Sequence record: MN850590.1
Strand: one strand, 5' to 3'
Source of the DNA: Escherichia phage moha
Length of the DNA: 64,000 nt
The notes under the pieces are model-generated. The model saw only the letters and a program-made list of their open reading frames with translations. It did not search any database and was not told the origin of the DNA. Positions 15,203 through 19,942 of this stretch are shown piece after piece (the first letter of the stretch is position 1; the number at the start of each line of letters is the position of its first letter). A program made the position numbers and the translations under genes.

Positions 15203-15862
15203 TTATTTAGCCCTTCCTAGTATTCGGACCGCTTGGTTGCATATAGCCGCTAAGCGATCTTCCTCAAGTATATTATTCCCCTTATACCAATACATCGTCA
15301 CAGTTCCAGCATAGATGTTATCCAAATTAAAGTATGGACAACTATACATATAAGAAAGTTCGGCAGTCTTAGATTTTGTAGGCAAAAATGCAAATTCTGA
15401 TTTAGATGAGAAATGACGGCCACTTAAATGAATTATATATTCATTGGCCGTTTTATCCACCGGGAATCCGCCAAGGGACTTTTCAGAAATTGTGCTAGGT
15501 AGTTTGCCTTCATAAGCTATAAGGTCGACAAAATAATTTAAGTTTTTAGGTCTGAAAGAATACACAGCACTAAAATCTGCACCAGATGAGATATGAACTA
15601 TTTGCAGTTGTTCTAGAGCCGCAGATTCAAAACGTAAAGCTCGTTCTTTTTGGATTATTTCAGTATAAGTATCATACTTAGCTCTTACATAATAATCCAG
15701 CAAAATACTTCCTTTGTACCATATTAGTGCCATTAGGAACAAAAGAATAATTACCGCTACTCGGGACATTAAAACCTTTCCAGTAGCGTTATCTTTGAAA
15801 ATACGATCTAGCAACCCAAATAGAATATCACTAGGCGAAAATGACACTTTTGGTGTTGCCAT
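15203..15862 (-). CDS. t: holin T
   Basis: 219 aa (T4 T 218 aa); N-terminal FSPSDILFG..LDR.FKDNATGKVL and C-terminus match recalled T4 holin. Confidence 0.9.
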   Translation of the reverse strand: MATPKVSFSPSDILFGLLDRIFKDNATGKVLMSRVAVIILLFLMALIWYKGSILLDYYVRAKYDTYTEIIQKERALRFESAALEQLQIVHISSGADFSAVYSFRPKNLNYFVDLIAYEGKLPSTISEKSLGGFPVDKTANEYIIHLSGRHFSSKSEFAFLPTKSKTAELSYMYSCPYFNLDNIYAGTVTMYWYKGNNILEEDRLAAICNQAVRILGRAK

Positions 15863-15871
15863 AATACCTCC

Positions 15872-16423
15872 TTACTTAAAGATATTTATAATCGCTTTGA
15901 TAATAGATTTGTTTTCAAGGTCAGGGAATTTAGGGAATTCACCGCCAAGATGTTCATGTTTTTCTAAAAGGGCAAAGAATTTTTTGAGCTCTTTAAATTT
16001 TCGTTTTTCTTCTCTATTAGCAACCTCTGCGTCAATAAGAGAACTTAAAACACTGAATAATTTATAGAGTTCATGAATTTTCTTATCACGTTGAACTACG
16101 CGTTTATATGCTTCATCTTCCTTCCACCCGTCACCGGTCCAAATGTCAAATTCACCAGGTTCTTCTGTAGTAACATTTTGAAGAGCACCTGGAGTGTCAA
16201 TAACAATTTTTTGCTTATCATAAGTCCATACTGTTTTTCCACGATGGTCTTCAACATACACCCATTCTTGTTCGCGTTCATCAAATAAAACAGCATAGCC
16301 TTCTTTAGGGTCTAAAGGTTTTTTAGATGTCGAGTGAGCTGGAAGACCCATACCTTTAATCGGTTTGTAATTTTCTTCTTTGTAAAATTCTTTAGTGTCA
16401 AAATAATAATGATATATTTTCAT
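15872..16423 (-). CDS. 38: tail-fibre assembly chaperone gp38 (T4-type, not T2-type adhesin)
   Basis: 183 aa; N-terminus MKIYHYYFDTKEFYKEENYKP matches T4 gp38. Confidence 0.85.
   Translation of the reverse strand: MKIYHYYFDTKEFYKEENYKPIKGMGLPAHSTSKKPLDPKEGYAVLFDEREQEWVYVEDHRGKTVWTYDKQKIVIDTPGALQNVTTEEPGEFDIWTGDGWKEDEAYKRVVQRDKKIHELYKLFSVLSSLIDAEVANREEKRKFKELKKFFALLEKHEHLGGEFPKFPDLENKSIIKAIINIFK
15883..15890 (-). promoter_or_regulatory. late promoter for holin t, embedded in 3' end of gene 38
   Basis: tatttata on + strand inside last codons of gene 38; GGAGG RBS of t follows. Confidence 0.45.
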
Positions 16424-16450
16424 ATTTAGAAGGGGCCGAAGCCCCTCTCC

Positions 16451-19400
16451 TTATGCTAAACGAACGATATAGTTAAAAGCAACGTTTTTAACTGTGTTTT
16501 CTGTATTTCCTGTGGCATTTACAGTTATTGTATGTCCATGGGAACCAATCGCTACCGAATGAGAGTGGGCACCAATACCTACAGTATGTGTATGGGCACC
16601 GATACCCACAGTATGAGCATGGTTACCTGTGGTACTTGTAGTTCCTGACCAACTATGGGTGTGGGCACCATCTGAAGAAGTTTTGGCCATATTCGACGAT
16701 GCAGTAGCACCGCTCACGGTTGCAGTGAATTTAGCGTTGCCGTTTGGACCCGCACTATTGTATCCATCATAGAATATGCTAGTGGGTATGCCGCCTTGTA
16801 CCTGAGGACCTGAACGCGCGTGTTGGTGCGCACCAGCGGAACTAGTATTACCACTCACTGTATGGCTATGGTTGCCAGTGGTATTACTGGTCTTAGTACC
16901 ATAATCAAAGCTTGAAGTCGTTTTGCTACCGTAATCAAAACTAGAAGTGGTCTTAGTACCCAAATCTGTGCTTGATGCACTTGCACTATGGCTATGTGAC
17001 TTAACACCGTCTGCTTCTGTACTCAATACATCACGCCCAGATGGTTTACCCTTAATAGTTTGCCCACGCATATCAGGAATAGTACCTGTTGGATACGCTG
17101 CCGCTAGTTTAGGATATGCAGACTTATCAAAGGTTTGACCTTCCATTAAAGCGAACCCGGCTGGAACTGAATCACTTGGCCATGGAATCGGAGCACCGAC
17201 TGGATAAGGTATTTGAGCATCAGAATACATCATATACACTTGACCAACGAGATGACCAGCGGGTAATTCTGTTACTGGTGTTTGATATCCACCATTAAGT
17301 CCAATTACCGAAATATAACGGGTATTTTCTGTGGCGTCATATTCAACTATAAGTTTGTCTGCATAAGTCCCAGCATACAGATAAACGTCATAATCATCAC
17401 CGGAGGTATTAATTGTTGCTATATTAGTAAATCCATTACCCGTGCGCCCCCATAAAGTGGCGTTAATACCTTTAGGATTGTTATTACTGGTACGAAGAAC
17501 TACTTCAGTAATTGTAGCCTGTTCTGGTGAATTGGCATTATATCCATTACCACCTATAATCTTAAATTGGACGGTAGAAACTGATTGTGGCATAGTTACA
17601 GTAGCAAATTTATACCATCCTGCAGTTGAACTACCGGACCAAGTTCCGACCTTAACTCTACGTTCTAAAGTTGTGTTCAGGTTAGCAAAATTACCAGAAC
17701 CACCTGTGATGTTACCATCGGTTCCAATCTGGGTTGAACCTATTCTAAGAGGTTTAGCTATATCAACCGTATCAGAGTTTAATGCAATACCATGGGAGTA
17801 GGTGTAACTATGCATACGAACGACGTTTCCGCCATCGCCAATACCCAAATACCATTTTGTGACATCTGCTTTACGTCCTTGGATGAAGTTAGAAGACTCT
17901 TGTGTTGGAGCATTTATTCTAATAGCATCTGATGCTGTATTTATTGTTATACGCTGACCTGCTGTAGTACCGGATGCTTCTACTTTAAATCTACCGCCAC
18001 CGATATCTACATCATGATCCATGGAAACTTTACCATTACTTAATGCAATATAGAACGGACGTAAATTAGAAATACCACCTGTTTCACCAGCGTTCTGCGG
18101 AGTTGGAATAATATAAAGCTTATCTTCAGAACGACGGAAAATAGCACCATATTCGGCATTCCAAATTCTTAATGCATCTGCTGTTCCACCAAATTTAGCT
18201 TGTCCGTTTACAGATAATCCATTATTTGCAACTAAACTTGATTCACTAACAATAGAACCGGCCGATATAATACCACCACCCACACGTAAAGCGCCGGAAA
18301 TTCTAAATTGGAGAGAACCGACAGTTTCAGAACCTGTTGGAGCTAAACGTTGAGAATAAAAATGATAGCCCTGGCCGTCATACAATTCAAATACGGTTTC
18401 ACGATTACCGGCAGTGGAGTCGAATGCATTACCCCAAGCTTTCATAGTTAAATAACTTTTATTTTGTCCTGCACGGGACCCGGCATTCCACTGGATAGTT
18501 CTCGAGCCATCAACTTTGCTAGGGGCGCCAAATTTAAGTCCTGCAGTATTATTAGAACTATTTAAAAATAATTCGTTGTCCAATTTAACAGGTTGGATAG
18601 AAGAAATAGTGCCATCAGCATAAAACTGTACATTATTAGAGCCAGTTACCAATTTCAAAATACCCGGGTTAATTTCCATACCTTCCTGTGTATTAATGTT
18701 GGTTTGGCCTTTACCACGGAAATAATGGGAAAATTTACCGCCAGAATTATATCCAATGTGGGTTTGACCATCACCTGCATTGTTTGTATCAGCCTGGGTT
18801 TGAACCGATAAAAGCGCGGCGTTGATTCCAGGCATGGTCCAGGTTCCGCCTTGGTCTTCTGAGCGTCCAAATAACGCTTTACGAGTACTACGGAAACTGT
18901 CAGGTGTAATAGAAGCAACAGAATTCCAATTACCTACTAAATCATAAACGCCTTGCTTAATATATTTTAAACCAGTTGCAGCATCGCCCAAAGCAATATA
19001 TCTTTCTCCCATTGGAGTAGGAGAGCCGTAGTTGTTAGTATTTTCGTCAGCAGTAATTGTGCCAATAGCAAGTGAACGACGTAATACCATTGCTCCATCA
19101 TTACGAAGACCCATTAATTTAGTAGTAAGTGTATTTCCGGTCCACCAAGAAATTTCATCATTCTTACCAGTTTGAGCTGAAGCGATTTCATGGTAAATGG
19201 TTCCACCTGATTTAGCTCGAACTTTACGAAGATAGTTTATACCATTTTCTTCACCTGTTCCAGGATAAACATATTGAACTAATGACTGCGAATCGTATTG
19301 TCCAAATGCTTTTGTGTCTAAAACAATGGTTTTCGTATTAACTTGTGGAGCAGAAACTATACCATTAGCGGAGTTAATATTGCCTGACGCAGAAATATTA

Positions 19401-19942
19401 CCTTTGCTGACAAATAAATCACCAGTGTCAACTTGGAAATTACCATTACGATTAAAAGTCCAATATTTCGAATCCCCAGTTTCATCAATATAATGGAACT
19501 TAAAACTGCCTTCAGCAACCAATGTACCCGCTGAAAACGTACCATCTTTATAACGTTGCTTAATGAGTGGATGATATTCTGAAATAGAAGTAGTTGAACT
19601 TAAATCTGTAAAGATAGGAGCTTTATTTAGGTGTTGATTTGCCCACGCGCCATTACCAGCTGTTTTAGGTAAAAATTCAATATATTTTCCTGCATAAACA
19701 AACTGATTTCCATTGAGATTATATGTGCCGTTTTGTAAATAATCACCATTTTGAGTTACATTACCGTTAATATCCCCGCCCTTAGCAAAGCCTAGGCTAA
19801 TAATATTACCGAGGTCATCTTTAGTAAAAAGAGTTCGATCTTTTAAGTTTATCGCTAATTCGCCTTCGGCTAATTGTGCTGCAGTAGGATTAACTCCTGC
19901 CACTTTGCTTCTTTTAAATTGTATCTGTTTTAATGTAGCCAT
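16451..19942 (-). CDS. 37: long tail fibre distal subunit gp37 (receptor-binding tip)
   Basis: 1163 aa; C-terminal HxH repeats and terminal [11 protein letters not shown] (intramolecular chaperone end) as in T4 gp37; synteny 36-37-38. Confidence 0.9.
16539..16615 (-). repeat. imperfect 27-nt tandem repeat (about 3 copies) encoding (V/A)xIG(A/S)HxH units
   Basis: Units tgggcaccaatacctacagtatg (16566-16588) and tgggcaccgatacccacagtatg (16593-16615) plus a degenerate copy upstream. Confidence 0.6.

Follow-up and report, generated by a model that had tools for sequence, protein, structure and literature searches.

Does the histidine-rich array at the end of this phage's long tail fibre mark a remodelled host-range module, or is it one length variant of a fibre tip that is already known? 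The window analysed here is a stretch of 64,000 nucleotides from Escherichia phage moha (MN850590.1), in which all the features discussed below lie on the minus strand. Gene 37 (16451-19942), recognised from its open reading frame, its BLASTP match to T4 gp37 and Pfam, encodes the distal subunit of the long tail fibre, 1163 aa followed by a stop codon; the comparison with 1026 aa in T4, made in a preliminary description of the locus, is right for both proteins. Residues 1-644 are 57% identical to T4 gp37 and the tip is 61% identical (BLASTP), with Pfam matches to gp37_trimer (PF20744) and Collar (PF07484). Directly downstream lies gene 38 (15872-16423), which, as that description also held, encodes a T4-type tail fibre assembly chaperone: its 183 residues align with T4 gp38 without a gap (122 identical, 67%) and match the Pfam family Caudo_TAP (PF02413). 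The short intergenic segment between the two genes (16424-16450) folds into a hairpin, GGAG ... GGGGC-UUCG-GCCCC ... AUG (-15.6 kcal/mol, z -2.0), and the same element is found in T4. In fibre ends of the T2/T6/S16 type, gp38 is an adhesin of about 260 aa that carries glycine-rich motifs, and gp37 terminates with a chaperone domain that cleaves itself off. Such an end is ruled out for moha, whose gp38 is a chaperone-like protein of 183 aa and whose gp37 finishes with an HxH needle in place of an S74-type domain. A study of Yersinia T4-like phages that use OmpF (PMC7917993) was set aside as a comparator because it concerns phages with gp38 adhesins.

The end of gp37 is, judged by homology, a receptor-binding tip of the T4 gp37/lambda Stf type, composed of collar, needle and head. 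A phage tail collar domain (aa 916-963; 17054-17197), the knob from which the needle would emerge, was located by Pfam (PF07484, E=5.8e-12, 45.8 bits against a cut-off of 24) and by alignment with the T4 tip structure 2XGF, and it directly precedes the needle. A phmmer search of the PDB matched query residues 88-349 to residues 18-242 of 2xgf_A (E=7e-78), spanning the collar, both needle arms and the C-terminus. HxH motifs on both arms around a histidine-free head and a downstream chaperone of the Tfa/gp38 type complete the features of this family. In the published T4 tip, the chain reverses its direction in the head to give a six-stranded needle (PMC12609058; PMC6957217; PMC9603124), which holds seven Fe sites bound by HxH motifs (PMC6957217, PMC12609058). 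The motifs of moha are homologous to these iron-binding motifs, in agreement with the earlier assignment of the tip to the T4 metal-binding needle type.

Within the C-terminal 188 aa of gp37 there are 16 histidines, every one of which belongs to one of exactly eight HxH motifs, where at least eight had been proposed. They begin at residues 983, 1025, 1039, 1094, 1108, 1117, 1126 and 1135. The first, HSH (aa 983-985; 16988-16996), stands at the base of the ascending strand and aligns with T4 H883/H885; it is followed by HSH (aa 1025-1027; 16862-16870) and by HQH (aa 1039-1041; 16820-16828), the final ascending site before the head and the equivalent of T4 H929/H931, a pair whose replacement by alanine is lethal (PMC6957217). 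Beyond the head, HTH (aa 1094-1096; 16655-16663) is the first descending site, followed by HAH (aa 1108-1110; 16613-16621) and by the sixth, seventh and eighth motifs at 16586-16594, 16559-16567 and 16532-16540. Seven of the eight thus fall in the interval 16451-16900 to which the array had been assigned, and the first lies outside it. A chance origin was rejected: in 100,000 residue shuffles of the tip the mean number of HxH motifs was 1.27 and the maximum was 7. The spacings between successive motifs are 42, 14, 55, 14, 9, 9 and 9 residues, against 32, 14, 37, 14, 9 and 9 in T4.

The last three motifs are carried by an array of three 9-aa units on the descending strand (16529-16609), detected by Tandem Repeats Finder as a period of 27 nt (3.1 copies, 77% matches, 16538-16622, score 93). 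In frame, the units read VGIGAHTHT (16583-16609), VGIGAHSHS (16556-16582) and VAIGSHGHT (16529-16555), with 67-74% DNA identity between them. The earlier reading of three tandem (V/A)xIG(A/S)HxH units encoded by imperfect 27-nt repeats is thus sound, and its placement at 16539-16615 is right to within a few bases. T4 does not share this repeat number, having two such units and seven HxH motifs, and a 9-aa gap appears in the alignments. Overlooked in the preliminary description was another array on the ascending strand, found by repeat search: three 10-aa units (30-nt repeat; 16871-16960; 30 residues in all) with 50-77% DNA identity, of which T4 has two, leaving a 10-aa gap. The extra ascending 10-aa unit matches the extra descending 9-aa unit. 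After the arrays come the last 26 aa (16454-16531), returning to the collar and near-identical to T4.

Against the 2XGF tip there are exactly three insertions, of 10 aa in the ascending arm, 18 aa in the head and 9 aa in the descending arm. We consider these observations best explained as a whole by a scaffold needle that is one rung longer than that of T4 and has eight HxH sites, with receptor choice residing in the head, and we put the probability of this reading at about 85%. In the last ~260 residues of gp37, the chain would leave the collar, run out along a thin, trimeric, six-stranded beta needle, form a small intertwined head and return along the needle to the collar. The HxH motifs of the three chains would face the needle core, each triplet binding one metal ion (Fe in T4). 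The 30-nt array (16871-16960) and the 27-nt array (16529-16609), each of three units, would then be two halves of one structural repeat: the outgoing strand would have gained a 10-aa unit and the returning strand a 9-aa unit (VGIGAHxHx) that brings the eighth HxH. With one more unit in the descending arm and a matching one in the ascending arm, the needle would be one structural rung longer than that of T4, and it is for this reason that an eighth HxH would be present, giving eight metal sites in place of seven. The needle would serve as scaffold, receptor choice would lie in a 52-aa histidine-free head unlike that of T4, and gp38 would act as a folding chaperone and not as a component of the fibre; unbalanced needles would be selected against. 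An AlphaFold2 monomer model of the 262-aa tip, built on a 40-sequence alignment, had a mean pLDDT of 47.8 and a pTM of 0.18, too low for the model to be used; the register of ascending against descending units is taken from the topology and from covariation.

Matching between the arms extends well beyond moha. The comparison set comprises 177 unique tips drawn from three independent collections. In 175 of them an H1-to-H2 spacing of 22, 32, 42 or 52 is paired with one, two, three or four trailing 9-aa spacings, respectively; shuffling the descending counts produced 74 matches on average and never more than 94. Every one of the 177 has inner rungs of 0/0, 1/1 or 2/2, and the last HxH starts 29 residues before the C-terminus in nearly all of them. 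If n counts the 10-aa/9-aa rungs (1-4) and m the inner 14-aa rungs (0-2), members of the family have 3 + n + 2m HxH motifs in all; moha has n=3 and m=1, as do TuIa and lambda Stf, and T4 has n=2 and m=1. Eight balanced (n,m) states were found, each with many head lengths. One of the two tips outside the pairing, that of Ca. Erwinia dacicola, was rejected as an unbalanced needle, since a 2-aa deletion destroys one HxH and the unit count is kept. The other, a TuIa-like contig of metagenome 3300030021 (L003), has three ascending and two descending units, with exactly one 27-nt unit missing; it may be a case in which an unbalanced needle is tolerated, unless the contig is a collapsed assembly.

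We tentatively raise a more general rule, in which needle length would be quantised in paired rungs: each outgoing 10-aa unit and each inner 14-aa HxH spacer would be matched on the other arm, giving needles of 4-10 metal sites built from the same parts. Unbalanced forms, L003 among them, would then be either defective fibres or rare intermediates in a two-step change. Both arms fit into about 0.45 kb and are heritable as one block, and their agreement may partly reflect linkage and not selection. We did not find the rule stated in the literature searched, and there may be an earlier description, for instance in Bartual 2010, Montag 1990, Tetart 1996 or Hyman & van Raaij 2018; a full-text search for His-box motifs in tail fibres returned nothing relevant. 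If structurally true, the rule would provide a simple recipe for engineering tips of chosen length. Arm-to-arm matching can also serve as a sanity check for assemblies and as a design constraint for engineered fibres.

The array had previously been suspected of being prone to slippage, and one could suppose that replication slippage or unequal recombination often lengthens and shortens the run of 27-nt repeats, so that isolates come to differ in host range. The number of units does span 1 to 4 across the family, the L003 contig lacks precisely one 27-nt unit, and the first two units of TuIa are 89-90% identical, with exact runs of 11-14 nt. Duplications bounded by His-containing motifs are also said to have produced T4 host-range mutants, in work by Tetart and colleagues. 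In moha, however, adjacent units are not near-perfect repeats, being 67-77% identical with exact runs of no more than 8 nt, and they differ largely at synonymous positions, which points to an old duplication. In each array, the 3' unit resembles the corresponding unit of other phages clearly more than it resembles the units beside it in moha, although this comparison did not separate the cases for the first two descending units. Copy number among relatives, which it had been suggested should be checked, appears fixed in the records inspected, about 60 of 143: the 40 best and 23 evenly sampled high-coverage records have the same length apart from differences of +3, +3 and -21 nt, none of them 27 or 30 nt. 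Moreover, the units would sit in the scaffold and not in the receptor-contacting head, and a change in one arm would need matching in the other, a one-arm-only change being seen in a single tip of the 177. We thus regard frequent slippage as very improbable.

Needle length might instead be adaptive, in that an extra rung, which would add roughly 3 nm, could tune the reach of the head through LPS or O-antigen to a porin, making the eighth HxH a functional remodelling and not a neutral variant of the scaffold. The number of HxH motifs is reported to track needle length in the Bas63 paper (PMC12609058), and needle classes with 4 to 10 HxH are scattered over flank lineages: Fitch counting on an approximate neighbour-joining tree gives about 24-26 changes in n and 16 in m, figures that show scatter only, the flanks being short and recombining. 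Against this, one needle class carries many different heads; AV117, which is experimentally OmpC-dependent, has the same eight-HxH needle as moha, and T4, with seven, uses OmpC too. A link between needle length and receptor or LPS type would be hypothetical, and we consider adaptive length very improbable. AV117 joins the same needle to a shorter, different head, which shows that needle class and head vary independently.

In the preferred reading, a scaffold needle with receptor choice in the head, the difference in host range would most likely lie in the histidine-free segment between the third and fourth HxH motifs (aa 1042-1093; 16664-16819), which is 52 aa long (34 in T4). The segment is near-identical in vB_EQ1, similar in AV110 and identical at 28 of 52 positions in TuIa, whose reported receptor is OmpF. 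The receptor of moha is probably a porin, with OmpC favoured, a prediction that goes together with head-mediated binding. The receptor-binding role assigned to the head is based on subdomain 932-959 of the T4 tip (PMC9603124), and use of OmpC by AV110 was predicted by its authors (PMC10844046). A 2026 preprint describes 17 T4-type tips that are specific for OmpC. The proposal of a remodelled host-range module is thus upheld in that the head differs from that of T4, but the HxH motifs on which it was built belong to the needle scaffold and not to the surface that would contact the receptor. For annotation, comparisons should be made on the head segment (16664-16819), and the HxH count and the length of gp37 are therefore unsuited as host-range markers.

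The eight-HxH layout itself is ordinary and already known, from TuIa, lambda Stf and about 140 sequenced T-even-like phages. The tip occurs without indels in about 143 phage records (89-96% nt identity), against 28 for T4's own form, and is thus about five times commoner. The array is therefore expanded only relative to T4, as TuIa gp37 and lambda Stf share its spacing pattern. Little weight attaches to it as a discovery: the combination of eight-HxH needle and T4-type chaperone is the common form, and T4 is the shorter minority. Among the closest characterised systems is TuIa gp37 (X55190; Montag, Hashemolhosseini & Henning 1990), from a T4-genus phage and sequenced in 1990, with the same spacings (42, 14, 55, 14, 9, 9, 9), three plus three units, a head of equal length, a T4-type gene 38 downstream and 208 of 262 tip residues identical; it differs in its head sequence, in first two units that are closer at the DNA level than those of moha, and in having no 144-aa insert before the collar. 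T4 gp37 (PDB 2XGF, Bartual et al. 2010) has a homologous collar, needle and C-terminus with aligning HxH motifs, but two units on each arm, an unrelated head sequence 18 aa shorter and, again, no insert. Lambda Stf (J02459 orf-314, a 100% match) belongs to the same eight-HxH class (42, 14, 48, 14, 9, 9, 9), with ~64% identity to the tip and a downstream chaperone, Tfa, of the Tfa/gp38 type; it differs in its head (spacing 48 against 55) and in its shaft, being the side fibre of a siphovirus. Among Mosigvirus and Tequatrovirus alleles, vB_EQ1 (96% aa identity in the tip), mogra, phiD1, AV110 (85% aa), HX01 and JS09 share the tip including its head, on another shaft mosaic.

The greater length of gp37 had also been connected with remodelling of the host-range module, which is misleading, as only 37 of the 137 residues in excess of T4 gp37 are in the tip and most of the excess comes from a 144-aa inserted fibre domain upstream of the collar (aa 761-904; 17231-17662). 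Alignments show it to be absent from T4, TuIa and AV110; T4 and AV110 pass directly from '...NLN(S/T)T(I/L)E' into the collar. The insert had no match in Pfam, and a PDB sequence search gave only chance matches to antibodies (E about 0.3). Homologues are present in 294 phage records (tblastn), and the insert is 100% identical at the amino acid level to that in AV117 gp37. The best match to gene 37 as a whole reaches only 91% nt identity, and the gene is a mosaic in which an AV117-like shaft and insert are joined to a vB_EQ1/mogra-like tip.

The C-terminal 262 aa of gp37 match the solved tip of T4 gp37 (PDB 2XGF, residues 785-1026; E=7e-78), and BLASTP and MAFFT both reproduce an alignment with exactly three insertions relative to T4. 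The first (10 aa, between HxH-1 and HxH-2) is an additional copy of the 10-aa unit, the second (18 aa) falls within the His-free stretch that separates HxH-3 from HxH-4, and the third (9 aa, VGIGAHSHS) lies near the C-terminus. In T4, whose tip domain limits are stated in PMC9603124, the chain leaves the collar along the needle, makes the head and doubles back, giving a needle of six strands in which HxH motifs hold seven iron ions axially (PMC12609058; PMC6957217). Because the chain doubles back, the extra 10-aa and 9-aa units would lie on the outgoing and returning strands of one needle, together making one added rung, and we infer from this topology that the needle in the window has one more predicted metal site than that of T4. 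The preliminary description was thus right about both the tip family and the metal-binding homology.

All 16 histidines in the last 188 residues of gp37 lie within exactly eight HxH motifs, which start at aa 983, 1025, 1039, 1094, 1108, 1117, 1126 and 1135; 100,000 shuffles of these residues gave a mean of 1.27 motifs and never reached eight. Tandem Repeats Finder reports a period of 27 nt (3.1 copies, 77% matches) at 16538-16622, and the in-frame reading gives three descending 9-aa units at 16529-16609 on the minus strand, the last of them VAIGSHGHT. The at least eight motifs and three 27-nt-repeat units claimed earlier are therefore confirmed, and the repeat number is not that of T4, whose tip has seven HxH and two 9-aa units. 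The range proposed for the motifs, 16451-16900, holds for seven, but the remaining one lies outside it, at 16988-16996. Absent from that description is an ascending array of three 10-aa units, encoded by a 30-nt repeat at 16871-16960 (minus strand).

If outgoing and returning units are paired, their numbers should agree among relatives. Tips were drawn from 120 cluster representatives of the protein database, 80 loci on IMG/VR viral contigs and 79 loci on bacterial contigs representing one genome per species, which gave 177 unique sequences running from the DMRG motif through the stop. In 175 of these, HxH-1 to HxH-2 spacings of 22, 32, 42 and 52 pair with 1, 2, 3 and 4 trailing 9-residue spacings, respectively, against a mean of 74 and a maximum of 94 matches when descending counts are shuffled among sequences. 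The inner 14-residue spacers (12 once) are equally numerous on both arms in every one of the 177 tips, at 0/0, 1/1 or 2/2. With n rungs of the 10-aa/9-aa kind and m inner rungs (n=3, m=1 in the window; n=2, m=1 in T4), total HxH equals 3 + n + 2m, ranging from 4 to 10; 24 of the 177 have eight. The extremes of the series come from the protein database (P0065) and from prophages of Klebsiella, Phytobacter, Desulfoluna and Serratia (L140, L150, L153, L154, L143, L160): one protein carries ten HxH and two inner rungs per arm, and several prophage fibres have only four HxH and one rung.

The agreement between arms is partly linkage, since about 0.45 kb separates the two arms, which can move as one block. 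However, each needle class occurs with many different head lengths, and AV117 has the same needle as the window with a different head, so exchanges between the arms do occur; that mixed-length products are nevertheless almost absent counts against pure linkage. In one of the two exceptions (L122, insect symbiont), a 2-aa deletion abolishes one HxH while the unit is retained. The only truly unbalanced needle is that of a metagenomic viral contig (L003; IMGVR_UViG_3300030021_000020, 1501-2250), which has a TuIa-like head, three ascending units and two descending ones, and lacks exactly one 27-nt descending unit; it is either genuine, having arisen by slippage or recombination, or an artefact of repeat collapse during metagenome assembly. 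The explicit paired-rung rule, which follows from the known hairpin topology, is the sole mildly new element here and may already be published.

The earlier suggestion that the array is prone to slippage finds no support in the window. Between adjacent units, identity is 74% and 67% in the 27-nt array and 77% and 50% in the 30-nt array, with a longest common exact run of 8 nt. In both arrays the 3' unit clearly resembles its counterpart in vB_EQ1, AV110 and AV117 more than it resembles the neighbouring units of its own genome (for the first two descending units this comparison is non-discriminating). Taken together, these comparisons make recent duplication unlikely, and copy number is fixed among relatives. 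In TuIa, by contrast, units 1 and 2 of either array share 89-90% identity and exact runs of 11-14 nt, and the unbalanced tip falls in this lineage, so the loss of a unit on rare occasions, or a collapsed assembly, is plausible there.

Nor is the eight-HxH form unusual; it is expanded, as had been proposed, only relative to T4, and is the common TuIa/lambda form. The C-terminus of phage lambda Stf (J02459 21236-21970, orf-314) has HxH spacings of 42,14,48,14,9,9,9, and the TuIa gene 37 fragment (X55190) has 42,14,55,14,9,9,9, the same as the window, head length included, with 208 of 262 residues identical. The phage collection has 143 records with coverage of 80% or more of the window tip; the best 40 align in a single piece, 757 nt to 757 nt, and the length differences in the 23 high-coverage rows of an evenly spaced sample are 0, +3 or -21 nt, none of them 27 or 30 nt. 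T4's own tip, covered to at least 80% in only 28 phage records, mostly T4 strains, is the shorter, rarer form. Tips from unrelated bacterial assemblies (L085-L095) are 100% identical to the lambda Stf C-terminus. Such stf-identical tips (L085-L095, L097) occur in GTDB contigs of Pseudomonas, Shewanella, Paenibacillus, Chromatium, Kitasatospora and others, several about 48.5 kb long at roughly 1x coverage, which indicates lambda DNA contamination and no real prophages.

The head segment has 52 aa in the window versus 34 in T4, with unrelated sequences; it is nearly identical to that of vB_EQ1 and shares 28 of 52 residues with that of TuIa, reportedly an OmpF phage. By homology, the specificity determinant is probably aa 1042-1093 (16664-16819), as the receptor contacts of T4 fall in residues 932-959, a tip subdomain flanked by HxH-3 and HxH-4 (PMC9603124; PMC6957217). 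The HxH histidines of T4 are required for folding (PMC6957217); the array is a scaffold, and reading it as part of a remodelled host-range module misplaced the emphasis. The Mosigvirus phages AV117 and AV118, with a T4-type gp37 and chaperone, are OmpC-dependent, and OmpC was predicted for AV110, which has the same head type as the window (Vitt et al., PMC10844046). A 2026 preprint maps the specificity of 17 OmpC-specific Straboviridae to gp37 D10/D11 and describes extensive variation in the tip subdomain. Together with TuIa, these phages suggest that the receptor is probably a porin, most likely OmpC.

Gene 37 (16451-19942, minus strand; 3492 nt) encodes the distal subunit of the long tail fibre in a T4-like phage, and its 1163 aa, against 1026 in T4, are as previously given. 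However, the 137-residue excess, read earlier as a sign of a remodelled host-range module, lies mostly elsewhere: the tip accounts for 37 aa, and residues 1-644 align to T4 1-640. The largest length difference stems from an inserted block of 144 aa (aa 761-904; 17231-17662, minus strand) between a conserved motif and the collar. In T4, TuIa and AV110, that motif runs straight into the collar, whereas AV117 gp37 carries the block at 100% protein identity. In 294 phage records (T-even-like, Felixounavirus, SSU5 and Acinetobacter phages) tail fibres carry homologues of the block; no match to it was found in Pfam or in a PDB sequence search. The best whole-gene match in the phage collection is vB_EQ1, at 91% nt, with none higher. 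Given the AV117-identical block and a tip like those of vB_EQ1, mogra and phiD1, gp37 is a recombinant mosaic of an AV117-like shaft plus insert and a vB_EQ1/mogra/phiD1-like tip.

The neighbouring 12 kb are 97% identical to the Mosigvirus phages JK42 and mar005P1, placing the window in the RB69 group. Downstream of gene 37, on the same strand, lie gene 38 (15872-16423) and holin t (15203-15862). The 183-aa product of gene 38 is identical to T4 gp38 at 122 of 183 positions without gaps and matches Pfam Caudo_TAP, which identifies a T4-type folding chaperone, as had been claimed, and rules out a T2-type adhesin. The gap between the gene 37 stop and the gene 38 start (16424-16450, minus strand) reads GGAG, a GGGGC-UUCG-GCCCC tetraloop hairpin (MFE -15.6 kcal/mol, z -2.0), then AUG. 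The T4 junction carries the same element, presumably the known T4 arrangement in which the hairpin draws a distant Shine-Dalgarno sequence near the gene 38 start codon.
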